Of a stretch of 36,946 nucleotides of DNA, positions 1 to 11,267 are shown piece after piece. Numbering within the stretch: position 1 is the first letter of the stretch; each line of letters starts with the position of its first letter. This DNA comes from a candidate division WOR-1 bacterium RIFCSPHIGHO2_01_FULL_53_15. GTDB taxonomy: Bacteria > Margulisbacteria > WOR-1 > O2-12-FULL-45-9 > XYB2-FULL-48-7. Where the stretch lies: NCBI GenBank assembly GCA_001772335.1, contig METM01000021.1, forward strand, positions 127,440 through 164,385, given 5' to 3'. The notes under the pieces were generated by a model. The model did not search any database. It worked only from the letters and a program-made list of their open reading frames with translations, and had not been told where the DNA came from. The position numbers and the translations under genes are program-made.

Positions 1-208
1 TCTGGACCGGATTCGTTTTTGGATCCGGATTGACTTTTCTTGCTTCGGCGATTGATTTTTCCAACATGTTTTCAATCTCCGGCTTCTTCTCCACTAGATT
101 CATGAGTTCCCGGGTTATCGGTTTATGAATGTTTGCCGCAAAACCAGTGCTTGCGGTTAGAATCAATCCTGCCAGTATTATGGCTAAACAAAATTTTGCC
201 TTTCTCAT
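1..208 (-). CDS. N-terminal part of a secreted protein, probably phosphatidylserine decarboxylase family (runs off window edge)
   Basis: Manual translation from ATG at 208 (SD AGGAG upstream): MRKAKFCLAIILAGLILTASTGFAANIHKPITRELMNLVEKKPEIENMLEKSIAEARKVNPDPKTNPVQ. Sec-type signal peptide. The SI..A..NPD..TNP.Q segment resembles, from recall, the N-terminus of signal-peptide-bearing PSD-family proteins. Catalytic part is outside the window. Confidence 0.6.
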   Translation of the reverse strand, partial: MRKAKFCLAIILAGLILTASTGFAANIHKPITRELMNLVEKKPEIENMLEKSIAEARKVNPDPKTNPVQ

Positions 209-224
209 TTTTCGTCTCCTTATT

Positions 225-1280
225 CTAACGATTTAATATTTCCTTTAGTTTATTGATATCGCCTTTAGTATACGGCAAGGCCAGCATTAAGAGAAGGCGT
301 GCCTTTGGGGAGATAAGGTCGCCAGCCAAAATAGCCCCCTCTTTTTCCAGTGTAGCCCCGCCACCCGCACCACCATAAATAGGTAAAACTGCCCCATGAT
401 AGACACGGCTGGTTATGACCACGGGGATACCTTTCTTTAAGGCGTATTTTATGGCCTCATAGGTCTTGGCATTAACATTACCAGCGCCCACGCCTTCGAC
501 CACGATTCCATTAACTCCGGAGTCTACGGCGTAGCGTAGGAGTCGGCCATCTGCTCCTGCATACTCAGAGATTAAAACAACATTCGGTAATTTTTCCGGC
601 AGGGGAAGTTTTTGCCTGCGCAAGGCATCATTAAAACGATATACCTCGCCCATAGCAATATAGCCCAAATAACCTTTTTCTCCCGAGTTAAATGTCTGCA
701 CATTGGTGGTCTGTGTCTTTCTTACATCTCGGGCGGAGCAAATATATTGATTCATGGTAACGGTTACTCCCCAGTCCTGCGCTACTTTTGAACAAACCTG
801 GGTAACAGCATTTAATATATTTGCCGGGCCGTCAGGAGAAAGCTCAGAAGCATCCCGCATCGCCCCCACAAATACCACAGGCTTATTGCTTTTAAGCGTC
901 AGTTCTAAAAAATAGGCCCCTTCGGCCATAGTATCCGTGCCATGGGTGATGACGACCCCGCTGACTTTGGGATCTTCTAAAATACCATCTACGGCTTTAC
1001 TGAGTTTTGCCCAAATATCAGGCGTTATCTGCGAGCTGTCGATATTGGAAAAATTCACCACTTTTATATTAGCTATCTTCGAAAGCCCCGGCACCGCTTC
1101 TATCAAATCTTTTCCGGATACTGCCGGTACCGCAGCGCCGGTTTTTGGGTCTACTTTTTCAGCAATCGTTCCGCCGGTAGTTACTATAGTTACATTGGGC
1201 AATTCTGCTTGGGAATAAGAAAACCCGCTAAATATAACGGCAAAAACAATCAAAAATACAATCCGCATTTTAACCTTCAT
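225..1280 (-). CDS. ansB: Secreted L-asparaginase (type II / glutaminase-asparaginase family)
   Basis: TGGTIA and HGTDTM catalytic motifs, VFVGAMR, DGPAN, N-terminal signal peptide. Confidence 0.92.
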   Translation of the reverse strand: MKVKMRIVFLIVFAVIFSGFSYSQAELPNVTIVTTGGTIAEKVDPKTGAAVPAVSGKDLIEAVPGLSKIANIKVVNFSNIDSSQITPDIWAKLSKAVDGILEDPKVSGVVITHGTDTMAEGAYFLELTLKSNKPVVFVGAMRDASELSPDGPANILNAVTQVCSKVAQDWGVTVTMNQYICSARDVRKTQTTNVQTFNSGEKGYLGYIAMGEVYRFNDALRRQKLPLPEKLPNVVLISEYAGADGRLLRYAVDSGVNGIVVEGVGAGNVNAKTYEAIKYALKKGIPVVITSRVYHGAVLPIYGGAGGGATLEKEGAILAGDLISPKARLLLMLALPYTKGDINKLKEILNR

Positions 1281-1289
1281 TTCGTCTTT

Positions 1290-1667
1290 TCACCTCTTGG
1301 TGCTTGTATAAGAAGAGAAGAGGTTCAAGTCAAGCTTCTCCGAAATATGGCGGACGGCTTTCTGCGCCCGGACGCTGTTTCCGGCTGCGTCGAGCGGAGG
1401 AGAAAACGCGGCAATACCCATGACCCCCGGAACCACGGCTATGATTCCGCCCCCGACCCCGCTCTTCCCGGGCAACCCAACATAGAACAACCACTCGCCG
1501 GTGCCATCGTAGAGGCCAGCCGTTGACATGACGGCAAGGATTCCGGGAACATAACGCGCATCCACCAATCGATCCTTCGTCCACGGGTTGACTCCGCCGT
1601 TGGCGAGCGTTGCCGCCACAAGCAGCCGGATGGCGAAACTCCCGTGCAGTGGCCGTCTATTCAGCAT
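1290..1667 (-). pseudogene. glsA: Glutaminase (GlsA) C-terminal remnant fused to an unrelated ~15-aa start
   Basis: AATLANGGVNP...GLYDGTGEW...VGLPGKSGVGGGIIAVVPG.MGIAAFSPPLDAAGNSVR is the GlsA C-terminus. Only 125 aa, and the N-terminal SxxK catalytic region is absent. Confidence 0.85.
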
Positions 1668-1672
1668 AGCAA

Positions 1673-1700
1673 ATTATATTCCCCTATGCGAAAAAATCAA
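1673..1700 (-). promoter_or_regulatory. Sigma70-type promoter upstream of the glsA remnant and asparaginase
   Basis: TTGATT-N16-TATAAT, 5 nt before the ATG at 1667. Confidence 0.5.
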
Positions 1701-1711
1701 GACATTAAAGG

Positions 1712-1840
1712 GTCGGCAACAGCAACATTTCATCGGCTTACCGGAAAGGTTTGATCGAAGTGGAAGGCAACGCCCGGCACCTGATCCAGATCGGCCGCAA
1801 GAGCTTGCTGATGCAGTTCATCACCCCATTCGGCGGTTAG
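1712..1840 (+). pseudogene. Start-less 3' gene remnant (42 codons), weakly SCP2-like
   Basis: Reads VGNSNISSAYRKGLIEVEGNARHLIQIGRKSLLMQFITPFGG*, with coding-like third-position GC. In-frame TAA just upstream, and its stop overlaps the stop of the convergent PSD gene. Confidence 0.3.
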
Positions 1841-2937
1841 CGCTTTGCCGCTATACCGATCTTTTGTTTAACTTTAATCGGTATGCCATCATCTCCGGTT
1901 TTCCTGGCGGGAAAAGGTTGGGTAAATTTAATGGTCCCGGGCTCGAAAATCAACAGGATTGAAGAACCCCCGTATTCAAAATGGCCCAGCTCCTCACCTT
2001 TTTTGATATAATTGCCAACTTTTACTTTTGGTTCAGTTACAATTGACCCAACACTCCAAAAACCAATAGGGATCATTGCCACCAAGCCAAATTCTTTAGT
2101 TTCAATGATATAACAAGACCGTTTGTGTTTTGCGAGATCCTTGTACCAGTTTACATTTTTAAAATTATAATTATAGGAACCGGCATATTCGCCTACTCCG
2201 ACAATCTTGCCGGATACGGGGGCGTGAAAGTGGTGATAGTCAGTGAACCACAACAGGATATCCAAAACCGGCCCGCCGATGAATCTGTCGGCATAGATAC
2301 TGTTGTTAAGAGCTTGCCGGATATTAATTACATCTCTTTTGATTTTAAAATTCACGTCCAGATCTTCTGCGTAGATTTGGCAGATGCTGCCGTCTGCTGG
2401 AGACACGATGACAGAAGGGTCTTTCTCTTCGTCAAGCGGTCTGGCTTGAGGCTTAACCGGTCTTAGGAAAAATTCATTAAACGTTTTAAAGCCGCCTTTA
2501 GGCACAATATAATCATCCATTTTTACCAGTGAGCTGGACATCCACTGACCCATGGTCGCGGCTGAAGCAGGGGTGCCCAAGTACTCTCCATTGGCGTTAA
2601 CAAAGGCAATGAACCATGAACTGAAAATATTATTGTTGAAGAGAATTTCTCCTGCTTCTGAATTAGCGAGCTCATCAAAAGGCATAATATACTTTGCCGG
2701 CGCCTCCGGAACAGGATTATAAACCAGCCATTCCTCAAAGAACTTTACGAAATCACCGCTGGTTTTGTTATGCCAATAGGACTTTTTATCCTGGAGCTTC
2801 AAGGACTTATCAATTTGCGCTTTCAGATCGGGCGTGCTGTCGAGCAATTCTTTCAAGTTCTGGACAATGTTTGCCTGGCCATACACGCAATTGAACGAAA
2901 AAATCAACAAAAGCAAAATGAACGCAAGCTTTTTCAT
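1837..2937 (-). CDS. Secreted phosphatidylserine-decarboxylase-family pyruvoyl enzyme
   Basis: FKTFNEFFLR, IVSPADG, DYHHFHAPVSG, KKGEELGHFEYGGSS (autocleavage site). True start MKKLAFILL at 2937 with SD GGGGAGG, followed by a signal peptide. Confidence 0.88.
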   Translation of the reverse strand: MKKLAFILLLLIFSFNCVYGQANIVQNLKELLDSTPDLKAQIDKSLKLQDKKSYWHNKTSGDFVKFFEEWLVYNPVPEAPAKYIMPFDELANSEAGEILFNNNIFSSWFIAFVNANGEYLGTPASAATMGQWMSSSLVKMDDYIVPKGGFKTFNEFFLRPVKPQARPLDEEKDPSVIVSPADGSICQIYAEDLDVNFKIKRDVINIRQALNNSIYADRFIGGPVLDILLWFTDYHHFHAPVSGKIVGVGEYAGSYNYNFKNVNWYKDLAKHKRSCYIIETKEFGLVAMIPIGFWSVGSIVTEPKVKVGNYIKKGEELGHFEYGGSSILLIFEPGTIKFTQPFPARKTGDDGIPIKVKQKIGIAAKR

Positions 2938-2950
2938 GGTTTGCCTCCCC

Positions 2951-3595
2951 TTACTTCTTTGCCGGCAATGGATCGGGATAAATAAAATTAATGAAACCCA
3001 GCGCCGCCAAAGCGACCCCATAGTTCTTTTCGATATTTAATGAAGTAATGTTATACTTCATTTCTCCCCTTTGTTTCAGCCCCCGAATGCTCAATTCATG
3101 ATTGAGAGATTTTTTTAATTGTGCAGCGGCATCCTTTTTAGCAGTTTCTGCATCAATCTTTTTCTGGCTGTAAATCCGCTCGTATTCCGCGGCGAAACCA
3201 CCAATGAATTCCCCCTTGGCGTTAATTGCCCAAACCCTGCCGATTCCTGCTGACACCGTATCGCCTTTTACTCCGCCGGCTTTTGCCAAAATTGCCTCTA
3301 AAACCGTTCCATGATGAAAATTTTGCTTAACCGATTCTATGGGAACCTCATATGACTCAGGGGGAAGAACCGAAGTGTAATACATGACATTAAAATTCTC
3401 TATGCCCGCAGCCTGAAGCGCCAGATCGTAGGAAAATGTTTCGTAGGGATCGGGCGGAATCCCCTGATCAGATTGGCCGGTGCCGGTAGTGGCAATATAG
3501 GCCGTGGGAATTCTTGGCCCAAATTCAGAAACAGCAAAAACCGAATTGGGCATCAATAAAACGATGCCCAAAACAATCATCAATGCCTTTTTCAT
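2951..3595 (-). CDS. aaxB: Pyruvoyl-dependent arginine decarboxylase (chlamydial AaxB type) with signal peptide
   Basis: G.G.SD.G.PP.PYETFSYDLAL..AGIENFNV..YTSVLP (T|S cleavage site), GGFAAEY, SLNHELSIRGL. Start MKKALMIV at 3595 with SD AAGGAGG. Confidence 0.85.
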   Translation of the reverse strand: MKKALMIVLGIVLLMPNSVFAVSEFGPRIPTAYIATTGTGQSDQGIPPDPYETFSYDLALQAAGIENFNVMYYTSVLPPESYEVPIESVKQNFHHGTVLEAILAKAGGVKGDTVSAGIGRVWAINAKGEFIGGFAAEYERIYSQKKIDAETAKKDAAAQLKKSLNHELSIRGLKQRGEMKYNITSLNIEKNYGVALAALGFINFIYPDPLPAKK

Positions 3596-3623
3596 CTTTT
3601 TTGCCTCCTTCTTTCTGGAAAAA

Positions 3624-3651
3624 ATTTTACCACTTCTCTCGAACTTGTCAA
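3624..3651 (-). promoter_or_regulatory. Sigma70 promoter of the decarboxylase cluster
   Basis: TTGACA-N16-TAAAAT with extended -10 TG, 28 nt upstream of the aaxB-like ATG. Confidence 0.7.
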
Positions 3652-3660
3652 GGATTGATG

Positions 3661-4971
3661 GGCTCTTCAGCAAACAGTGTGCCAAATTAAACCCCCTAAA
3701 TAGGCAATGGGAATAAAGGCCAGCATCATTTTTCTGATGTAGACTTGGACGTTGCGAAAACCATAGCTTTGTCGTTTGATCATTTTGATTTTGGTGTGTG
3801 CGCCTTCTGTAAACGCATTGGTAGTTTTGCTGATAAAATAATTCAAGATATACATCCGCCAGCGTTTTAAGGTATTGCCCCACTGATTAATCGCCGCGTC
3901 ATCACTGCATTCCATGTTCAAAATAATTCTGGACAACAGAGTCACCGCTTCTTCTCTGGTTTTGGCTTTGTAAAACAACCTTAACTGTTCCTTGAAATAG
4001 TAAAAGGATTTCAGCTCGGGATACCTCTTGAGGAGATCGTCCAGCGCTTGCTTCTCCCAGCCCCTAAGGTTTTCCCTGCCTTTGATAAACCACCAGCGTT
4101 TGCCGATATGCTTGCGGCCTTGCATTTCCTGCTCCAACCGCCGGGCTTCTCCAAGACGACGATTAGCGTCTTGGATAACATGAAAATGATCCACCACAAT
4201 ACTGGCCCCGGGAAGCTCTTGTTCAAGCGCCGACCTGAACAACTCCTTCATATCAATGCAAACTTCAGAAATATTGCGTTTAATGGGCTTGGGCACAGCC
4301 CTAAGCCATTGCCTCAAGCTGGCCTGGCGGTCGTCAGGCAGAATGGCCTTAAGCCTTCTCTGTGACAAATTGGTGATGGTAATGACCAGATCATTTCCTC
4401 TGAAGCTATGCTCGTCAACTCCCAATTTAATCCTCTTCAGCTTTTTTTCTTCCTGCCAGTTTGGCTCAGTATCAACCTTGGCCAGTAAATAACGCGCTTC
4501 GTGATCGCTGATCCCATTCTCCACCCGTAACTGCCGGAAACTTTTCCCCTTCAGTAAATTCAACAGTTGATATTCCGCTGTTTCCGTCTTCCGGCTCCAT
4601 TGTTTCAATCCGGGCCATTGTTCCGTAAACGGTTTGCCGCAGCGCGAGCACTGCCAACGGCTCTTTCGGCCCTTGAGATAAACAATCCTTTCTCCCCAGA
4701 GATGGTGTTTTACCAATCTCAGCCTGCCAGCCTGGTGGCAATAATCAGCTTTCTTGCCACAGCGCGGACAACACCGGTGCTTTTTCTTTAGTTCAACTTC
4801 AATTTCGATGGCCTTCGGCTGGAGGATAATTGCGCGGATCCAAAATGCTTGCAGTCCGAAAATTTTTGCGATATCATTTTTCATGTGGTAGGCTCCTCTC
4901 TTTTTTGCGAAAGATAAGGAAAACCTACCACATTTTTATCTAATTATTGGCACACTCTTTGCTATAGAGCC
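3661..4971 (-). mobile_element. Complete ISL3-family insertion sequence (1311 bp)
   Basis: Terminal IRs GGCTCTTCAGCAAACAGTGTGCCAA (3661-3685) and 4947-4971, matching 22/25. Flanking direct repeat GGATTGATG at 3652-3660 and 4972-4980. Confidence 0.95.
3667..4884 (-). CDS. ISL3 family transposase
   Basis: CPRCG/CSRCG zinc finger, LGVDEHSF, VCIDM, VVDHFHVI, TNAFTEGAHTKIKMIKRQSYGFRN. Confidence 0.95.
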   Translation of the reverse strand: MKNDIAKIFGLQAFWIRAIILQPKAIEIEVELKKKHRCCPRCGKKADYCHQAGRLRLVKHHLWGERIVYLKGRKSRWQCSRCGKPFTEQWPGLKQWSRKTETAEYQLLNLLKGKSFRQLRVENGISDHEARYLLAKVDTEPNWQEEKKLKRIKLGVDEHSFRGNDLVITITNLSQRRLKAILPDDRQASLRQWLRAVPKPIKRNISEVCIDMKELFRSALEQELPGASIVVDHFHVIQDANRRLGEARRLEQEMQGRKHIGKRWWFIKGRENLRGWEKQALDDLLKRYPELKSFYYFKEQLRLFYKAKTREEAVTLLSRIILNMECSDDAAINQWGNTLKRWRMYILNYFISKTTNAFTEGAHTKIKMIKRQSYGFRNVQVYIRKMMLAFIPIAYLGGLIWHTVC

Positions 4972-5030: not shown

Positions 5031-5243
5031 TCATGACACGCTGTTGACTGCGGCCATATTTAAAAAAATAATTCCCAATATCGAATGGCGCGGGGAAGGC
5101 AGCGCCTTTAACAGTTTTTCAATTGCCTGATGAATGTGATAAATGATTACATCCGCATGGCCTTTTTGTTTGATCAACAGGCTTGCGGTGTCGGCATCAT
5201 GGGAGGCTAAAATCAGCCATTCCTTGATATCAATTTCGCTCAT
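5031..5243 (-). pseudogene. HEPN-domain protein, truncated
   Basis: EWL..A..D...A...YHIHQAIEKLLKAL is a typical HEPN N-terminal half. Similarity stops after ~48 aa. Overlaps the upstream MNT gene. Confidence 0.75.
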
Positions 5244-5541
5244 ACAATTTTTTACCCTTTGTGGTTATTTCCCGCCAGAAATTAAATCGGCTTTTCTTTT
5301 TTAAATCTTCAGAAGAGGTGACCAATAAATCAAGCCCGAAGTCGCGAGGGAAAAGTGATTTGCTGATCTCCAGGGCCAGGGCTTTCTTATCCCGATTGGA
5401 ATCATCAATGATAAGCAGATCTAAATCGCTCAGATTAGTTGCTTTGCCAAAGGCGTAACTGCCGAACAAGTAGATTTTGTTTGGGTTTGTTTTGGTTTTT
5501 ATAGTTTCAACTATTTGGCTAATTTCTTGTTGAGTTAGCAT
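5230..5541 (-). CDS. Minimal nucleotidyltransferase (MNT) antitoxin
   Basis: IYLFGSYAFG...SDLDLLII motif, 103 aa, paired with HEPN. Confidence 0.9.
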   Translation of the reverse strand: MLTQQEISQIVETIKTKTNPNKIYLFGSYAFGKATNLSDLDLLIIDDSNRDKKALALEISKSLFPRDFGLDLLVTSSEDLKKKSRFNFWREITTKGKKLYERN

Positions 5542-5585
5542 TTCTTATGGGAAATTATGCCATAACGGAGCACGGCTTGAAAGCA

Positions 5586-5636
5586 AACGGCGGCGGAAGT
5601 TTCGTCGCAGGAGGTTTCGATAGCGAGGATGAGCAC
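5586..5636 (-). pseudogene. tsaD: 5' stub of tsaD (first 17 codons)
   Basis: GTG at 5636 gives (M)LILAIETSCDETSAAV, the highly conserved TsaD N-terminus. Sequence then diverges abruptly and stops. Confidence 0.8.
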
Positions 5637-5638
5637 AA

Positions 5639-5830
5639 CTATCCGATCTCGCCGCGGCGGAACTTCTCGCAGATCTCCTTGCTCTGGGTCGGCCTGAATT
5701 TATACAAGAACTTATTCATTTCTTCGACCCAGCGCAGCCTTTGGCCGATCGACAATTTCTGAAACTCCTTGATCTGTTCGTCAGTGTAGTCATAACTGTA
5801 GCCGCCATGCTTCTTATTTGGATCTGTCAT
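5639..5830 (-). CDS. Small hypothetical protein, probable partner of the upstream nucleotidyltransferase
   Basis: 63 aa, starts 4 nt after the NTase stop, F..LS..QRL.W.EE pattern. Confidence 0.65.
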   Translation of the reverse strand: MTDPNKKHGGYSYDYTDEQIKEFQKLSIGQRLRWVEEMNKFLYKFRPTQSKEICEKFRRGEIG

Positions 5831-5834
5831 ATTA

Positions 5835-6347
5835 TTAATCCCCCGATTCTAATAAGGCCTTGATATCCGAGAGGTCCTGTTTTCTGCCGGAGAGCTCTTT
5901 GAGCTTGATCAGCATTTTCTTCGGTATCAAAAAAATTTTTGCGCCGCGGTCTGATACCTGTTTTTTGCCTCTGGCGAGCTCTTCGTAATTCAGCGGATTA
6001 TCGATCATAATGTCAACTAGGGCGTAAGGGTTGTCAGGGCGATAAAAGGTGAAGACCTTCATATTCTTGTTCTTGATCCAATCGGCTCTTTTGGCCGGAT
6101 CGGCCAGATCTTCCGCTTTGACCGGCGCCTTAGGTATAAAACCAAGTTGCCCCATTGTCTTAATCAATTTGAGCAGATTTTCGGGATTCAAATTGACCAT
6201 CAAGTCGATGTCGCCGGTTGTCCTGGGAATGCCGTAGAGGGCGACCGCTAATCCGCCGATAAGCAAATAATCAACTTTATTCTTTGCCAGCTGTTCAAAT
6301 ATATTTTCGTATAGTGTATCTTCGCCTTTTTTCCAGATCCAGATCAT
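5835..6347 (-). CDS. Nucleotidyltransferase-family protein (DUF6036/AbiEii-like, TA-associated)
   Basis: YLLIGGLAVALYG.PRTTGDIDL ... LIKLK..SGR.QD..DI..L. Confidence 0.8.
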   Translation of the reverse strand: MIWIWKKGEDTLYENIFEQLAKNKVDYLLIGGLAVALYGIPRTTGDIDLMVNLNPENLLKLIKTMGQLGFIPKAPVKAEDLADPAKRADWIKNKNMKVFTFYRPDNPYALVDIMIDNPLNYEELARGKKQVSDRGAKIFLIPKKMLIKLKELSGRKQDLSDIKALLESGD

Positions 6348-6436
6348 GAATTAATTATAACACAGTTTTTCTGCGAGAATTGAGCTTGATTGTCAACCGT
6401 TTGAGGCGTAAAATCCGATCATTCGGAGTGAGAAGA

Positions 6437-6892
6437 ATGAAACAACGCATCACCGCATCGCTGGCCTTAACTTTAGTATTGATATTCTTTGAGCAAACTG
6501 CCTTTGCCGCGGCGATCGCCACGAAGGCCGGCAAAACATTTAACATCACCCTGGCCTCAAATCCTACCACCGGTTACAGCTGGCGGATCGACGGATCGTT
6601 CGATAAGAGCATCGTTAAACTCCTGGGATCAAAATACGAGCGCCCCAAAACTTCATTGATCGGAGCCGGCGGCCGAGAGATCTGGCGCTTCAAGGCGCTC
6701 AAGCCGGGCAAGACGGCTATTAAGTTGAAATACGTCCGACCATGGGAGAAGAATACGCCGCCGGCGGAAAGACGCAGTTTCGAAGTCAAGATCAGTAAAG
6801 TTTATATCCAATCTGCAGGCGAAGGGTGCCGCTGGAAATATAATCGATCCCGGTTTCAAGGAAGAGCTCTTCCCGCCCGTAAATCTTGTTGA
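6437..6892 (+). CDS. Chagasin / I42 family cysteine protease inhibitor, secreted
   Basis: L.SNPTTGY.W, IGAGG.E.W.F.A, Y.RPWE motifs. Signal peptide from ATG 6437. Confidence 0.9.
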   Translation: MKQRITASLALTLVLIFFEQTAFAAAIATKAGKTFNITLASNPTTGYSWRIDGSFDKSIVKLLGSKYERPKTSLIGAGGREIWRFKALKPGKTAIKLKYVRPWEKNTPPAERRSFEVKISKVYIQSAGEGCRWKYNRSRFQGRALPARKSC

Positions 6893-7226
6893 AAATGAAC
6901 GAAAGAGAAGCGCCGTACGCGGTTTGATAACCATAATCGCCAAGCAGGCCCAAACTTAGAAAAACGGGGCTCCGGCCGACATCGAAAAGATAAAATTGTC
7001 CTTCGAGAAACATGATGAAAGGGTTCTCCCCCAAAAGACCTAAATCTTCCCCCGTGGTCGTTTCCAGGCCGAACCGCCCCGAGACCCGATCGTTGAAATC
7101 TTTTACCGTTTCTATCCCCAGCGCCAGGCCGCTCCGCAAGCCGCCGATAATAGCTGTGCGGTCGGCCCGGGCAGCTTGCCCGGTCAAAAATAAAACGGCA
7201 ATAAAAACTAAAAAATATTTCTTCAT
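6792..7226 (-). CDS. Small secreted, probable outer-membrane beta-barrel protein
   Basis: MKKYFLVF..AARA signal, amphipathic beta-strand patterns, C-terminal LQIGYKLY. Confidence 0.6.
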   Translation of the reverse strand: MKKYFLVFIAVLFLTGQAARADRTAIIGGLRSGLALGIETVKDFNDRVSGRFGLETTTGEDLGLLGENPFIMFLEGQFYLFDVGRSPVFLSLGLLGDYGYQTAYGASLSFIFNKIYGREELFLETGIDYISSGTLRLQIGYKLY

Positions 7227-7245
7227 TCTTTTGCCTTCCGGGAGG

Positions 7246-7779
7246 TTATTCCCCGTTATAAACTTTGATGGCCTGATCCAGATCATCAAAACTAGAATAG
7301 TTAAGGGCGGTTAAAGCGTTAAAAACCGCAGCTATGGCCAGAAGGCCCACTCCAAAATATGCTTGATTCCTATTCCCCGCATTGATACCTGCCGCGAGTG
7401 ATATTAAACCACCCCAGCCGGTGGCTGTTGTGACACTTGCCCAAACATTGCCCATAAAGATCCCGTCATCAAAAGCTCGCAGGTATCTGGCGGCCTCGGG
7501 CTTTGTATCCATGATACCGCGCAATCTGGCGTTGCTGTGCGCACTGGGAAAGAAGAATTGGATCAGACCGTTGTCATGCCCCAAACCGCGGAAAATGGTT
7601 TTATAATCTTCATCAAGCCGGAAATCATAGGTGACAATTGGAAGACCAAAAATTCGACCATCGACCGACTGCCAGGCTCCCAGGCCAAACCAGGCCCTAG
7701 TCCCCCGTTCGATCTTTTTCTCTGCCAGAACCGGTGAAACAAGCAAGATGATCATAAGCCAGCCCGCCATTATTTTCAT
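7246..7779 (-). CDS. Hypothetical exported/membrane protein
   Basis: SD GGAGG, signal peptide, two C-terminal hydrophobic helices. Confidence 0.6.
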   Translation of the reverse strand: MKIMAGWLMIILLVSPVLAEKKIERGTRAWFGLGAWQSVDGRIFGLPIVTYDFRLDEDYKTIFRGLGHDNGLIQFFFPSAHSNARLRGIMDTKPEAARYLRAFDDGIFMGNVWASVTTATGWGGLISLAAGINAGNRNQAYFGVGLLAIAAVFNALTALNYSSFDDLDQAIKVYNGE

Positions 7780-8441: not shown

Positions 8442-8562
8442 CCTCACCCGCTGGCGTAAACCGTCCCCCCTCTCCATTTCATGGAGAGGGGAAAGACATT
8501 TTTTGTTTTCCCTTCTCCATCGCAGATGGAGAAGGGGGCAGGTTGAAAGCCAGCGGATGAGG
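8442..8562. repeat. ~121-bp palindromic miniature element (family A), intergenic copy
   Basis: Terminal IR CCTCACCCGCTGGC / GCCAGCGGATGAGG (13/14), two internal hairpins, close homolog at 12045-12187. Confidence 0.9.
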
Positions 8563-8566
8563 CGCC

Positions 8567-9229
8567 CTATGTCTTGTGGGTAATGTCGAGGTCGAGCTTT
8601 TTGAGGGAATCGTCGCGACCGAAGAGGACTAGCGTGTCGTCTTTCTCGACCACCATGCTCCAGGCGGGGATGACGAGGTTCTCGTCGCCGCGGCGCACCG
8701 CAAGCACCGTGATATTGAACTTGTTGCGCAGGTCAAGGTCGGAAAGCGGCTTGCCGACCCAGTTCTTGGGCGCCTTGGTGCCGACTATCGTGACGTTTTG
8801 CCCGATGTCAAAATAATCCATGACCCCCTGGCTGGTCAGCTGATTCACTAATTTGATCGCCGTATCCTGTTCAGGGAAAACGATCCGATCCACCCCGAGC
8901 TTGGTCAGGATCTGGCCGTGGACGGTATTATGCGCCTTGCAAATGACGGTAGGGACCCCTTTGCTTTTTAGGATCTGTGCGGCGATGATGTTGCTCTCCA
9001 TGTTCGTGCTCTCGGCTACGATAGCAGTGTCGCACTCAAATACTTTCGCGTCTTCGAGAATCGCCTCGTCGGTGATATCACCAGCGAAGGCGCGGGTCAC
9101 CTCGTCCTTGATGCCGGCGATGACCGCCGGATCCTTGTCAATGGCGATCACTTCCTGCTTCTTGTAATATAATTCCCGGGCGACTTTACTGCCAAAACGA
9201 CCGATCCCCAGCACAGCGTATTTTTTCAT
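8567..9229 (-). CDS. ktrA: TrkA/KtrA family K+ uptake regulatory (RCK) protein
   Basis: MKKYAVLGIGRFG Rossmann motif, LG.D..VFPE, C-terminal RCK_C. Start at 9229. Confidence 0.9.
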   Translation of the reverse strand: MKKYAVLGIGRFGSKVARELYYKKQEVIAIDKDPAVIAGIKDEVTRAFAGDITDEAILEDAKVFECDTAIVAESTNMESNIIAAQILKSKGVPTVICKAHNTVHGQILTKLGVDRIVFPEQDTAIKLVNQLTSQGVMDYFDIGQNVTIVGTKAPKNWVGKPLSDLDLRNKFNITVLAVRRGDENLVIPAWSMVVEKDDTLVLFGRDDSLKKLDLDITHKT

Positions 9230-9272
9230 AATGCCAGCATTATATATTAAATTGTGGTAAAATTCCAACTTA

Positions 9273-11267
9273 ATGCGCAAGAATATTTTTCGAAAGATCA
9301 AAGAGTTCACCATCGGCAAGGCGCGCAACCCTCTCGACCAGTCGGTTTTTCACAACATCTCGCTAGTCGCCTTCTTTGCCTGGGTGGGGCTGGGGGCGGA
9401 CGGCATCTCGTCATCCTCCTACGGCCCGGCTGAAGCATTTATCAACCTCGGCAAATATCATTATCTCGGCCTGTTAGTGGCGCTGGCCACGGCCGTCACC
9501 ATTTACATCATCAGCGAGAGCTATTCGCAGATCATTGAGCTTTTCCCGACCGGCGGCGGCGGCTATATCGTGGCCAGCAAGCTCCTGGGGCCGCGGATCG
9601 GCATGGTCTCGGGCTGCGCGCTTTTGATCGATTATATTTTGACGATCACGATCTCGATCGCCAGCGGCGCGGATGCCGTCTTCAGTTTCCTGCCCGCGGC
9701 CTGGCTGGGCTACAAGCTGTGGTTCGCCGTCTTTGCCGTCCTCTTCATGATCATCCTGAATCTGCGGGGGGTCAAAGAGTCGGTGACCATCCTCATGCCG
9801 ATCTTTATGGCGTTCATCCTGACTCACGCTTTTATTCTTCTTTACGCGATCTTGAGCCATGTCCTCAATTTGCCGATGGTGATCAGCGCGACTGCGGCCG
9901 ACATCAGAGAATCATCCGCCAATTTGGGCATTTTCGGCATGCTATTCCTGATGATGAGGGCTTTCAGCCTGGGGGCCGGAACCTTTACCGGCATTGAAGC
10001 GGTCAGCAATAATTTGTCCATTCTGCGGGAGCCGAAGGTCAAGACCGCGAAACAGACCATGAGATACATGTTCATTTCTTTGGCTTCGATCGTTCTTGGC
10101 CTGATGTTCGCTTACGCTTTTTACGGGGTCGAGCCGCAATACGGCAAGACGCTAAATGCCATATTATTTGAAAGGGTGGCCGGCGGCTGGGGCGATTGGG
10201 GATATTTGTTCATTCTTCTGACGCTGATCTCGGAAGCGGCGATCCTTTTTGTGGCCGCGCAGACCGGCTTCCTGGGCGGGCCGAGTGTTTTGGCCAACAT
10301 GGCGGCCGACCGCTGGATCCCAAAAAGATTCGCCCTCCTCTCCGACCGCCTGGTGACGCTGAACGGCATTCTGATCATGGGGGTGGGGGCGACGCTCGTC
10401 ATGATCGGGACGCGCGGCTCGGTCGGCCTGTTGGTGGTGCTCTACAGCATAAATGTTTTCATCACTTTCTGCCTTTCCCAGCTTGGTATGGTGCGGCACT
10501 GGCTGCAGGTCAGGCAGAACGAGGGGAAATGGCGGGGAAAATTCGCCATCAATGGTATCGGGCTGGTCCTGACGACTTTTATCCTCATCTCGGTTTCGGT
10601 CATGAAATTTCACGAGGGCGGCTGGGTCACTCTCTTTATTACTGGGCTTCTCGTCGTTTTTGCCTTGATCATAAAGGCGAGTTATGAGCGGACAGACCGG
10701 CTGATCCAAAAACTCGATTCGGTCGTGACCGAGGTCGAAGCGAGCCAGCCGGTGCCGCAGATCCCTGTCCGGCCGAAGAGTGAAAAGTTCAGCCAGCTCG
10801 ATAAAACCGCGATCATCCTGGTCAAGGATTTTACCGGCGCGGGGCTCAAGACGATCTTCAATATCTTCCCGGCCTTCGGGAACGATTATAAGAATTTCGT
10901 GTTCGTCCAGGTCGGCCTGATCGACGCGGGCGCTTTCCGAGGCACGGCCGAACTGGATAGGGTCAAGAAAAAAGTTGACAACGAATTGAACCGCTATATT
11001 CACCTGATGCAGAGGCACGGCTATCACGCCGAAGGCCACGCCCTCTTCGGGATCGACACCGGCGAAGAGATCGAGAAATTTTCGATCGAGATAATGAGGC
11101 GGTTCCCCAAAGCGACATTCTTCGGCGGGCAGATCGTCTTTGAGCGCAGTTCCATAATGTCGCGCCTGCTCCACAACTACACGCTCTTCTCCGTCCAGAA
11201 AGACCTCTTCAAGCGGGGCCTGCGCCTCTATGTCCTGCCGATCGAATTGAGCCACTCAACCCACTAA
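9273..11267 (+). CDS. APC-family permease, KimA/YdaO-like K+ transporter
   Basis: ADGISSSSYGP.E, SY.QI..LFP.GGGGY, LLIDYILT, NLRGVKES, TGIEAVSN, C-terminal soluble domain. Confidence 0.85.
   Translation: MRKNIFRKIKEFTIGKARNPLDQSVFHNISLVAFFAWVGLGADGISSSSYGPAEAFINLGKYHYLGLLVALATAVTIYIISESYSQIIELFPTGGGGYIVASKLLGPRIGMVSGCALLIDYILTITISIASGADAVFSFLPAAWLGYKLWFAVFAVLFMIILNLRGVKESVTILMPIFMAFILTHAFILLYAILSHVLNLPMVISATAADIRESSANLGIFGMLFLMMRAFSLGAGTFTGIEAVSNNLSILREPKVKTAKQTMRYMFISLASIVLGLMFAYAFYGVEPQYGKTLNAILFERVAGGWGDWGYLFILLTLISEAAILFVAAQTGFLGGPSVLANMAADRWIPKRFALLSDRLVTLNGILIMGVGATLVMIGTRGSVGLLVVLYSINVFITFCLSQLGMVRHWLQVRQNEGKWRGKFAINGIGLVLTTFILISVSVMKFHEGGWVTLFITGLLVVFALIIKASYERTDRLIQKLDSVVTEVEASQPVPQIPVRPKSEKFSQLDKTAIILVKDFTGAGLKTIFNIFPAFGNDYKNFVFVQVGLIDAGAFRGTAELDRVKKKVDNELNRYIHLMQRHGYHAEGHALFGIDTGEEIEKFSIEIMRRFPKATFFGGQIVFERSSIMSRLLHNYTLFSVQKDLFKRGLRLYVLPIELSHSTH

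Follow-up and report, generated by a model that had tools for sequence, protein, structure and literature searches.

The left end of the DNA analysed (a stretch of 36,946 nucleotides, here the window) carries a gene run that we lean towards reading as a horizontally acquired island encoding Sec-exported, cofactor-independent enzymes, which would break down free amino acids once outside the cytoplasm; the substrates, the export and the role are those that we infer. The prediction that these are exported, self-maturing, amino-acid-degrading enzymes is well supported. The host is a groundwater bacterium with a genome of about 1.6 Mb, represented by a MAG that is 85% complete, and absences from it are provisional.

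The same-strand run reported by the first-pass annotation is real, every gene in it being encoded on the minus strand. From right to left, the run comprises an ArgDC-like gene (2951..3595, PF01862) for a predicted exported pyruvoyl decarboxylase of 214 aa with the PvlArgDC fold; PSD1 (1837..2937, PF02666), a predicted exported PSD-superfamily decarboxylase of 366 aa that resembles PsiD and Ao-ADC1; a non-functional glutaminase remnant, C-terminal third only (1290..1667, partial PF04960); a type II (periplasmic-type) L-asparaginase of 351 aa with a leader (225..1280, PF00710 and PF17763); and PSD2 (2..208, PF02666), also a predicted exported PSD-superfamily decarboxylase, of 425 aa, with its first 69 codons in the window. 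The ArgDC-like ORF spans 2951-3601, with the true ATG at 3595. PSD2 starts at 208 and extends 1,070 nt beyond the left window edge (rest at L002:13931-15208), and an outer-membrane barrel gene comes after it in the run. Successive intergenic gaps are 13, 169, 9 and 16 nt, then 19 nt to the following gene. Contigs of four further DNA runs span the gene junctions with 0 differences. Between the insertion sequence and the ArgDC-like gene, a sigma-70-like promoter match on the minus strand (3624..3651; TTGACA, 16 nt, TAAAAT, with TG) agrees at 11/12 positions, but is weak, since chance alone would give 10.1 such sites in the region, which has 9.

Leaders were called by hydropathy: within residues 1-45, the highest-scoring window of 10 residues had to average 2.2 or more on the Kyte-Doolittle scale and be preceded by one or more K/R. 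Five consecutive intact genes of the run were all flagged, compared with 198 of 942 ORFs of at least 200 aa (21%) across the genome, which bears out the earlier claim of Sec-type leaders on every non-remnant gene. These leaders run from 1-4 K/R through a hydrophobic core of 10-15 residues (mean Kyte-Doolittle 2.6-3.65) to small-x-small sites; in the ArgDC-like protein the core occupies residues 4-15 and a VFA site ends at residue 21. The glutaminase remnant was not flagged, its best 12-residue stretch averaging 2.07.

Island GC was 0.39-0.47 compared with 0.54 genome-wide. The island is flanked by toxin-antitoxin genes and an ISL3-family transposase at its border (3667..4884, minus strand; PF01610 at 194 bits plus an ISL3 zinc ribbon), and of the 146 genomes of the phylum only one had an ArgDC-like gene. 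Because low GC, flanking genes and distribution coincide, we attribute the cluster to horizontal transfer: it forms an island of about 10 kb, low in GC, mosaic in make-up and unique in the phylum. The transposase is single-copy in the assembly. Contigs from other runs span the IS/ArgDC junction, and separate contigs terminate at 3667 and 3705. The island stretch was present in both groundwater and soil metagenome runs.

To what extent these genes belong together was assessed from their neighbourhoods in 28 ArgDC-like and 49 PSD1 loci. A PSD2 orthologue lay within 10 kb of the ArgDC-like gene in 5/28 loci, from three different lineages, and two of these were fusions. The ArgDC-like gene is nevertheless independent of PSD2, because the other 23 loci had no PSD2 nearby and only one of five such genomes searched whole had an orthologue elsewhere. 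An asparaginase joined the pair at a single locus (1/28), L019, where ArgDC-like, PSD2 and leader-bearing asparaginase genes fit into 6 kb; the locus is from an unrelated phylum, and its gene order is unlike that of the island. PSD1 loci never contained an ArgDC-like or asparaginase gene (0/49) and contained a PSD2 orthologue only once (1/49), with unrelated neighbours; 28 of the 49 were shorter than 8 kb, so power was limited. The outer-membrane barrel recurred in 0/79 loci, and leader-bearing, secreted C69 dipeptidases were nearby in 4/28 ArgDC-like loci. The proposed five-gene recurring system was thus not upheld by the neighbourhood check; what recurred was ArgDC-like with PSD2. This pair is the conserved functional core, to which PSD1, the asparaginase gene and the glutaminase remnant have been added in mosaic fashion.

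Insertion-sequence activity could also have assembled unrelated accessory genes by chance, sharing export signals and no joint function. The transposase, the toxin-antitoxin genes and the remnant fit such an assembly, as do the solitary PSD1 of other loci, the differing gene order at L019 and the uniqueness of the island within the phylum. The remnant itself has a GC of 0.595, unlike the value of about 0.45 in its neighbours, and matched only positions 186-286 of 286 in PF04960 and 211-316 of 319 in its best NCBIfam match, glutaminase A; no further glutaminase fragments were found in the host genome, and no relative above 47% identity within the phylum. Chance assembly is nonetheless unlikely, as the genes share one strand, four gene pairs are separated by gaps of 9-19 nt, all five intact genes carry leaders against the 21% baseline, the ArgDC-like and PSD2 pairing recurs and is fused elsewhere, and the asparaginase accompanies that pair again within 6 kb in the unrelated phylum of L019.

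PSD1 and PSD2 matched PF02666 at 134.8 and 130.8 bits, the latter with the full 425 aa. PSD1 has the motifs SPADG at 179, DYHHFH at 233 and GGSS at 323, and an excerpt of PMC11929908 gives GGSS as the cleavage motif of PsiD. In PSD2, residues D216, H277/H280 and G375-S376 were invariant or nearly so in the homologue alignment. E. coli Psd has in common with both proteins the PF02666 catalytic core, the Asp/His/Ser motifs and pyruvoyl formation, and they could on that account be true phosphatidylserine decarboxylases acting on the outer membrane face or on foreign membranes. A secreted soluble PSD has reportedly been described in Toxoplasma, and no canonical PSD was found elsewhere in the host genome.

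We consider such a lipid function improbable. None of 14 genomes of the host's own family had a PSD gene, and the lineage therefore manages without PSD; the host genome has just one CDP-alcohol phosphatidyltransferase. The two proteins scored 129 and 78 bits against the NCBIfam PSD equivalog, far under its cut-off of 371, and their motif is of the PsiD type, GGSS/GGSD, compared with LGST in E. coli Psd; relative to that enzyme they have some 150-190 extra aa, which form an N-terminal helical domain. Full-length matches were instead obtained to two other PSD-superfamily enzymes, PsiD (the Psilocybe L-tryptophan decarboxylase) and Ao-ADC1 (the Aspergillus oryzae arginine decarboxylase), with which PSD1 and PSD2 have in common an N-terminal helical region, the PF02666 catalytic domain and a GGS(S) self-cleavage motif, at an identity of 17-19%. 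The PSD1/PSD2 family profile matched PsiD at 5e-35; its positions 17-353 aligned with Ao-ADC1 (9jer), but only its positions 143-329 with E. coli PSD. Likewise, Foldseek aligned the AF2 model of PSD2 (pLDDT 89.6) with PsiD and the A. oryzae enzyme over 391-425 columns and with E. coli PSD over only 261-273, so that likeness to the latter is confined to the catalytic core. PSD2 retains FLNV, a stretch lining the pocket in PsiD, and relatives include fusions with NRPS condensation domains. Ao-ADC1 is without PSD activity according to passages of a review (PMC12904898). Both reference enzymes are fungal, and the term signal peptide has 0 occurrences in PMC11929908 and PMC12904898, whereas PSD1 and PSD2 have predicted Sec leaders. 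Sequence and modelled structure together suggest that PSD1 and PSD2 are soluble amino-acid decarboxylases of the PsiD/Ao-ADC1 type, with putative substrates, rather than lipid enzymes, and this type strengthens the earlier reading of them as amino-acid decarboxylases.

The ArgDC-like protein matched PF01862 at 94.6 bits over profile positions 1-161 of 161. Its AF2 model (pLDDT 88.8) superposed on M. jannaschii PvlArgDC (PDB 1mt1, 1n2m, 2qqc, 2qqd) with a target-normalised TM of 0.81 and an rmsd of 3.3 Å at 23% identity. Residues D57, N69, T74-S75 and E137 were invariant in 35/35 homologues and align to the catalytic Mj D35, N47, S52-S53 and E109. The M. jannaschii enzyme is cytoplasmic, leaderless and 165 aa long, whereas the ArgDC-like protein has a leader, resembles characterised PvlArgDC enzymes in sequence at only about 23%, and belongs to a distinct clade whose members are 60-84% identical across phyla and almost always have a leader. 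The label "AaxB-type" given to it earlier is loose: the protein scored only 42 bits against NCBIfam arginine-decarboxylase equivalogs with cut-offs of 107 and 207. With the PSD proteins also below their cut-off, none of these decarboxylases takes a curated functional name. AaxB, of the chlamydial AaxABC arginine:agmatine exchange, is likewise a PF01862-fold pyruvoyl enzyme that cleaves itself before Ser, at Ser53 (PMC2720952). An outer-membrane channel gene in the cluster and horizontal acquisition are also common to AaxABC and the island, although the island barrel is of the non-recurring Phenol_MetA_deg type. The partner of AaxB is AaxC, a cytoplasmic-membrane antiporter (PMC2720952); the ArgDC-like protein, unlike AaxB, has a predicted Sec leader, and neither the island nor the 28 related loci contain an APC antiporter.

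Were the ArgDC-like protein to make agmatine from external arginine, uptake could feed the host's own agmatinase and AdoMet decarboxylase, and the enzyme would supply polyamines. The agmatinase gene (TIGR01230, 215.7 bits; cut-off 174.3) is indeed adjacent, on contig C22, to a gene resembling AdoMet decarboxylase, the genome has neither another PF01862 gene nor an agmatine deiminase, and its only Orn/Arg-type PLP decarboxylases are LysA and one unassigned protein of 380 aa. That protein may, however, be a native source of diamine, the 14 other genomes of the family have no ArgDC-like gene, no agmatine transporter was identified, and PSD1, PSD2 and the asparaginase are left unexplained; we therefore give polyamine supply little credence.

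Leaders were widespread among relatives, in 116/120 ArgDC-like homologues and 111/120 PSD2 homologues by the hydropathy rule, the misses being truncated gene calls or borderline scores, and in 10/10 PSD2 homologues fetched. PSD2 homologues at about 70% identity numbered at least 3,736. The PSD1 family (213 matches) was more mixed: 70 of the 120 members listed had a leader by the same rule, as did 8/8 relatives fetched at 54-81% identity and neither of two at 43-44% (P0329, P0344). Two natural fusions join ArgDC-like to PSD2, a 622-aa single ORF in L008 and a 624-aa protein (P0130). The ArgDC-like part retains its leader in these, and the PSD2 part starts about 3 residues or less from its predicted mature N-terminus, with no second leader. 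In other PSD2 relatives the fusion partner is an NlpE N-terminal domain. Because the leaders are conserved and the fusion keeps one and drops the other, the enzymes are very likely exported. A public PSD2 gene call begins, leaderless, at Met48 (P0121), and in L034 an N-terminal region of 250 aa, including a hydrophobic segment that probably spans the membrane, precedes the ArgDC-like domain, but uncleaved anchors or wrong start codons, holding the enzymes at or inside the cytoplasmic membrane, are very improbable given small-x-small leaders conserved across phyla, highly conserved residues directly after them, the deletion of exactly the PSD2 leader in the fusion, and neighbouring C69 peptidases whose leaders end immediately ahead of the N-terminal catalytic Cys.

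As claimed, positions 1-3651 hold no antiporter, and beyond the left edge the contig carries PSD2 and the outer-membrane barrel, together with TsaD and a toxin-antitoxin pair. None of 13 polytopic membrane proteins among 433 ORFs in the 28 related loci was an APC-type Arg/agmatine antiporter. The window does contain an APC-superfamily permease (64 bits; 9273-11267); its gene is on the opposite strand, next to a TrkA-like one, and is not part of the low-GC island. At L019, the ArgDC-like, C69 peptidase, PSD2 and asparaginase genes lie directly downstream of a true aspartate 4-decarboxylase and Asp:Ala antiporter pair (AsdA-AspT); part of the chemistry may thus feed a classical antiport system there, and "antiporter-free" is no general rule. 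No Asp-Al_Ex gene was found in the 85% of the host genome available. The suggestion of a single conserved antiporter-free exported system is therefore only partly supported: the leaders and the lack of APC antiporters in 28 loci agree with it, and L019 and the non-recurrence of the five-gene set do not.

In the mechanism that we propose for the exported amino-acid-degrading enzymes, the decarboxylases would leave the cytoplasm as unfolded chains, and self-cleavage at T74-S75, GGSS and GGSD after export would give each of the three its own pyruvoyl group. The presence of all these motifs agrees with the earlier prediction of cofactor-independent or self-maturing enzymes. In the periplasm they would convert amino acids to amines and CO2, consuming one proton per turnover, and the asparaginase would release ammonia and aspartate; the outer-membrane beta-barrel may provide a route of substrate entry. 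Proton consumption with ammonia release in the periplasm (pH conditioning) and release of assimilable nitrogen, singly or together, are tentative roles of equal weight, and some other function is slightly less probable; these results contain no pointers to acid stress. Two of the island enzymes fall into large families of predicted exported decarboxylases that have been overlooked and currently bear lipid or arginine enzyme labels.

The asparaginase is ordinary alone and unusual only in its gene company. It matched PF00710 at 206 bits and PF17763 at 103 bits (N- and C-terminal domains), carries TGGT at 35 and HGTDT at 113, and scored 296.7 against TIGR00520 asnASE_II, slightly below the cut-off of 314.3. 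Type II domains and a leader are common to it, E. coli-type AnsB and M. tuberculosis AnsA, with no notable difference. In M. tuberculosis, the ammonia released by a secreted asparaginase provides for both nitrogen assimilation and resistance to acid (PMC3930563). Three further genomes in the phylum carry orthologues of the island gene at about 70% identity, and the L019 orthologue is 67.6% identical.

The gene run occupies the left end of the window (G000:C21:127440-164385, from a source assembly of 1.56 Mb that is 85% complete) and is read from the minus strand. In transcription order, 1-4884 opens with an ISL3 transposase (3667-4884), followed by a 214-aa PF01862 (PvlArgDC) protein, here ArgDC-like (ATG at 3595, stop at 2951), and a 366-aa PF02666 (PS_Dcarbxylase) protein, PSD1 (2937-1837). 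Next come a glutaminase remnant (1667-1290) of 125 codons, matching only profile positions 186-286 of 286, a 351-aa type II asparaginase (1280-225) and the first 69 codons (208-2) of PSD2, a second PF02666 protein whose 425 aa continue left of the window. An outer-membrane barrel of the Phenol_MetA_deg family (252 aa, 34.6 bits) begins 19 nt after PSD2 in the same run, and beyond it the contig carries a nucleotidyltransferase/HEPN pair and then TsaD. Successive genes from ArgDC-like to the barrel, the remnant included, are separated by 13, 169, 9, 16 and 19 nt. Contigs from four other DNA runs bridged the gene junctions with zero differences, and these together with the Pfam matches confirmed the gene families and order listed in the first-pass annotation. 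A promoter and terminator scan of the region gave site counts at chance level, with one 11-of-12 promoter match before ArgDC-like. In two runs, separate contigs ended at 3667 and 3705 and continued into unrelated sequence; a likely explanation is that the end of the ISL3 element is repeated in other contexts.

ArgDC-like matched PF01862 over the entire profile (positions 1-161 of 161) at 94.6 bits, against a gathering score of 22.7. Its AF2 model (pLDDT 88.8) aligned with 1n2m and 2qqd at target-normalised TM scores of 0.76-0.81 and rmsd of 3.2-3.5 Å; for M. jannaschii PvlArgDC the values were TM 0.81 and rmsd 3.3 Å, at 23% identity. Residues D57, N69, T74|S75 and E137 were invariant in 35/35 homologues and align with D35, N47, S52|S53 and E109 of the M. 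jannaschii (Mj) enzyme. Of these Mj residues, N47, S53 and E109 appear in the titles of PDB entries; D35 is the counterpart of D57. ArgDC-like therewith keeps the predicted self-cleavage serine and the Mj-type residues of PvlArgDC. The NCBIfam arginine-decarboxylase equivalogs were missed (42.7 bits vs 207; 42.1 vs 106.95), and arginine would be a sensible candidate for its substrate. The protein belongs to a separate clade of at least 267 members that maintains 60-84% identity across lineages labelled Desulfovibrionaceae, Omnitrophota, Chlorobium, Thermotogae, Bipolaricaulia, Zixibacteria and Micrarchaeota. Pseudodesulfovibrio, Desulfovibrio aminophilus and Salidesulfovibrio onnuriiensis are among its labelled carriers and include candidates for culture.

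PSD1 and PSD2 share ~32% identity, and both possess the Asp/His/Ser motif set of PF02666 and a Gly-Ser cleavage site, GGSS at 323 in PSD1 and GGSD at 374 in PSD2. These sites are of the PsiD type and unlike that of E. coli PSD, the two motifs being given as GGSS and LGST in PMC11929908. A profile built from 51 members of the PSD1/PSD2 family detected both PsiD (5e-35) and E. coli PSD (2e-33). On Ao-ADC1 (9jer), an arginine decarboxylase of Aspergillus oryzae, profile positions 17-353 aligned with residues 82-462; because coverage starts at profile position 17, the match takes in the N-terminal domain. In Foldseek, the PSD2 AF2 model (pLDDT 89.6) aligned with PsiD/Ao-ADC1 over 391-425 columns (TM 0.61-0.66, target-normalised) but with E. 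coli PSD over only 261-273 columns. The family matches at full length the PsiD/Ao-ADC1 layout of an N-terminal helical region and a C-terminal PSD-type catalytic domain; Ao-ADC1, according to a review (PMC12904898), consists of an N-terminal helix region joined to a PF02666 catalytic domain and lacks PSD activity. An FLNV stretch common to PSD2 and PsiD was the sole shared feature seen in the pocket comparison.

Several further results bear on the substrate of these two proteins. Both missed the NCBIfam PSD equivalog (PSD1 129.3 and PSD2 78.5, against a best-model cut-off of 371). Among distant PSD2 relatives, the fusion partners were NRPS condensation domains, a nucleoside hydrolase and an ILEI domain, and the condensation-domain fusions offer indirect support for a free amino acid, not phosphatidylserine, as substrate. 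The window's genome, at 85% completeness, showed one CDP-alcohol phosphatidyltransferase only, within a 190-aa ORF, and PF02666 genes were found in 0/14 other genomes of the same family; within that scope, nothing in these counts points to a phosphatidylserine pathway that PSD1 and PSD2 could serve. We conclude that both are predicted soluble amino-acid decarboxylases and not lipid enzymes. PSD2-like proteins number at least 3,736 at ~70% identity across distant phyla.

The asparaginase retains its N- and C-terminal domains, the TGGT and HGTDT motifs and an N-terminal leader, and scored 296.7 against TIGR00520, just below the cut-off of 314.3. By these features it is predicted to be an ordinary type II (AnsB-type) enzyme.

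Sec-type leaders had been claimed for the run, and the claim was supported in all intact proteins by a hydropathy rule (K/R-rich start, 10-15-residue hydrophobic core, small-x-small sites) and, for the decarboxylases, also by leaders on homologues. All five intact proteins passed the rule, with core mean Kyte-Doolittle values of 2.6-3.65, and the glutaminase remnant was not flagged. The rule is passed by 198/942 (21%) of the genome's ORFs of at least 200 aa, a baseline that makes five consecutive leader-bearing genes unusual. Leaders were present in 13/13 ArgDC-like homologues inspected and in 116/120 by the hydropathy rule; for PSD2 the counts were 10/10 and 111/120, and all nine misses were gene calls starting inside or past the leader. 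PSD1 relatives passed in 70 of 120 cases: every one of eight fetched relatives at 54-81% identity had a leader, and two at 43-44% identity (labelled Actinobacteria and Lacinutrix) were leaderless. A secreted PSD has reportedly been seen in Toxoplasma.

Natural fusions also point to export. In a Thermodesulfovibrionales MAG, a single 622-aa ORF (L008:4287-6155) contains both ArgDC-like and PSD2 domains, and the same fusion occurs in P0130, a 624-aa metagenomic protein with 9 member sequences. In these two fusions the ArgDC-like half retains its leader, while the PSD2 half starts ~3 residues or less from its predicted mature N-terminus. The fusion at L010:9998-11868, also from a Thermodesulfovibrionales MAG, is interrupted by frame breaks that may be assembly errors. 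Such a chain would hold two different self-cleaving pyruvoyl enzymes within one exported polypeptide. In other PSD2 relatives, the PSD2-like part is joined to an NlpE N-terminal domain. The comparative evidence from homologue leaders and fusions is stronger than the hydropathy calls alone, and we regard export of the enzymes as well supported rather than proven. At L034:9221-10579, ~250 residues with a hydrophobic, probably membrane-spanning stretch precede the ArgDC-like domain, which looks like a membrane-anchored variant and not one with a cleaved leader; upstream of it is a gene resembling M14 carboxypeptidases.

Taken jointly, these results allow a tentative reading, to which we give appreciable but minority weight: that ArgDC-like, PSD2 and the leader-bearing PSD1 members are widespread, unrecognised extracytoplasmic pyruvoyl decarboxylases, antiporter-free, Sec-exportable through their self-made cofactor, amine-making and proton-consuming, with ArgDC-like and PSD2 as a two-enzyme unit, and that thousands of 'phosphatidylserine decarboxylase' entries are misnamed. 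The two-enzyme unit is suggested by the natural fusions. Carriers would be bacteria of many phyla, plus archaea if MAG binning is right; their labels include Desulfovibrionaceae, Omnitrophota, Chlorobium, Atribacteria and Methanotrichaceae.

Fold, catalytic motifs, conserved leaders, fusions and patchy distribution are observed, and from them we infer how the enzymes might work. They would cross the membrane unfolded through Sec, and in the periplasm the decarboxylases would fold and self-cut, forming pyruvoyl groups. Free amino acids would enter via outer-membrane channels and be decarboxylated in the periplasm, and the asparaginase would give aspartate and ammonia. One proton would be consumed per decarboxylation, and amide hydrolysis would release base. 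A membrane potential could not be built without an antiporter, so the pay-off is likely to be pH conditioning of the periplasm and surroundings, and/or nitrogen release with amine production. PMC3930563 ascribes to a secreted M. tuberculosis asparaginase roles in nitrogen assimilation and acid resistance. Uptake of agmatine feeding polyamine synthesis is a minor alternative pay-off, consistent with the agmatinase and AdoMet decarboxylase-like gene of the host. Another contig of the genome, C7, encodes a PLP decarboxylase (380 aa, Orn/Arg/DAP fold; L090:1165-2307, minus strand) that scored below every NCBIfam cut-off; it may serve as the native ornithine/arginine decarboxylase, feeding the agmatinase/AdoMet decarboxylase pair on contig C22.

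An antiporter-free system had been proposed from the visible part of the run, with the suggestion that the sequence beyond the left edge be read for transporters. Reading that part of the contig yielded PSD2, the barrel, the nucleotidyltransferase/HEPN pair and TsaD, and no inner-membrane transporter was found in the ~10-kb island, including the contig left of the window. Among 433 ORFs in the 28 ArgDC-like loci with a complete gene, 13 had six or more hydrophobic segments, and none of these 13 was an APC-family transporter. The classical systems (AaxABC, Adi, Gad) pair a cytoplasmic decarboxylase with an antiporter gene, a combination that the island lacks: its decarboxylase bears a leader, no inner-membrane transporter lies in the island, and the polytopic membrane ORFs of the 28 related loci include no APC-family member. 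The only APC-like gene in the genome is 5.6 kb off on the opposite strand. At 8567-11267 of the window, a TrkA-like gene is divergently paired with this 664-aa APC-superfamily permease, the genome's only AA_permease_2 match. The permease (9273-11267) is unlikely to be a cognate antiporter: its match is weak (64 bits), it has no NCBIfam match, and it lies beside the TrkA-like gene, on the other strand and outside the low-GC island.

The first-pass annotation had also suggested a check on whether the gene combination recurs. A scan of 185,579 species genomes for ArgDC-like neighbourhoods gave 30 loci. PSD2 orthologues (63-77% identity) were present in the flanks of five (L008 and L010, both fused, L009, L016 and L019); in five ArgDC-like genomes with no PSD2 nearby, an orthologue was found elsewhere in only one. 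L009 also has a third PSD-like gene, which is leader-bearing. Leader-bearing C69 dipeptidases lay near ArgDC-like in four loci (L014, L016, L017, L019), and further neighbours included beta-lactamase-family hydrolases (2 loci), an M14 carboxypeptidase, a PAD-type arginine deiminase and solute-binding proteins, along with many unrelated genes. The deiminase, a 713-aa PAD + PAD_M protein (PF03068, 421 bits; L026:920-3061, Gastranaerophilales MAG) directly upstream of ArgDC-like, is predicted to be a second arginine-directed enzyme beside it. An asparaginase orthologue (67.6% identity, with leader) was near ArgDC-like only in L019, an Omnitrophota MAG. The order there (L019:6473-15967) is aspartate 4-decarboxylase (782 bits), Asp:Ala antiporter (597 bits, above cut-off), ArgDC-like, C69, PSD2, a small exported ORF and asparaginase, and a periplasmic asparaginase could supply aspartate to the antiport system.

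PSD1 neighbourhoods were surveyed in 49 metagenome loci, 21 of them at least 8 kb long. ArgDC-like was found in 0/49 and asparaginase in 0/49, a PSD2 orthologue adjoined PSD1 in 1/49 (L040), and the remaining neighbours were unrelated housekeeping genes; PSD1 was rejected as a conserved system member on this survey. A tblastn search for the barrel and glutaminase gave no match in the 30 ArgDC-like and 49 PSD1 loci. The locus surveys favour an ArgDC-like/PSD2 link and not a conserved five-gene system. The earlier interpretation is thus supported in part: its observation stands and the ArgDC-like/PSD2 pairing recurs, but the five-gene set does not. A functional link between ArgDC-like and PSD2 is supported by these gene contexts, which also share, more loosely, exported enzymes that break down peptides and amino acids.

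The nearest known systems are AaxABC (PMC2720952), whose AaxB is described there as acting on imported arginine, archaeal PvlArgDC, PsiD/Ao-ADC1, AnsB-type asparaginases and AsdA-AspT. Every enzyme family in the run is already known. What appears new is the compartment, predicted from the Sec leaders that proteins of two pyruvoyl decarboxylase folds conserve, together with the size and conservation of the putatively exported clades and the occasional ArgDC-like/PSD2 fusion. Both folds make their own cofactor, and the two families with predicted leaders are large and strongly conserved. Searches of full texts, covering main texts and few subscription journals, turned up no publication that describes an exported PvlArgDC or a pyruvoyl decarboxylase in the periplasm. 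To our knowledge, every pyruvoyl arginine decarboxylase characterised so far is described as an intracellular enzyme, as are PsiD and Ao-ADC1, the characterised amino-acid decarboxylases of the PSD superfamily, and we know of no decarboxylation-based acid resistance or energy conservation that does not require an antiporter. Periplasmic activity, if real, would explain how a decarboxylase can function in a compartment that receives no PLP. It would also give anoxic habitats a further, extracellular source of biogenic amines, and a large set of proteins now annotated as 'phosphatidylserine decarboxylase' would have to be renamed.

GC content was 0.39-0.47 across ~C21:124,000-134,000, compared with 0.54 genome-wide and 0.595 in the remnant alone. 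Among the 146 species genomes of the phylum, the window's genome was the sole carrier of ArgDC-like, long PSD forms occurred in it and one other only, and asparaginase orthologues (~70% identity) were found in three others. The distribution was similarly sparse in the phylum of G146 (labelled Desulfovibrionaceae, the source of L014), where 4/401 sampled genomes carried ArgDC-like. On composition and gene content, the island is best described as a mosaic of foreign genes edged by an IS element and toxin-antitoxin pairs. A decayed native gene was ruled out as the source of the glutaminase remnant, with 0/14 family genomes matching and a phylum maximum of 47% identity. The stretch was present in groundwater and soil metagenome runs, and no RNA run was among those listed as containing it.

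Toxin-antitoxin pairs (nucleotidyltransferase/HEPN-type, AbiEii-like) flank the island on both sides, at window 5031-6347 and, on the contig left of the window, L002:11766-12727. On that left part, L002 ~8500-8800 (C21 ~120.9-121.2 kb) is a masked stretch (X in translations) within two large overlapping ORFs of no obvious family. Window 6380-6892 (plus strand) encodes a peptidase inhibitor of the chagasin family (I42, 106 bits) whose N-terminus is hydrophobic; after it come two small ORFs on the minus strand (6792-7289 and 7246-7779), both leader-bearing and matching no family.
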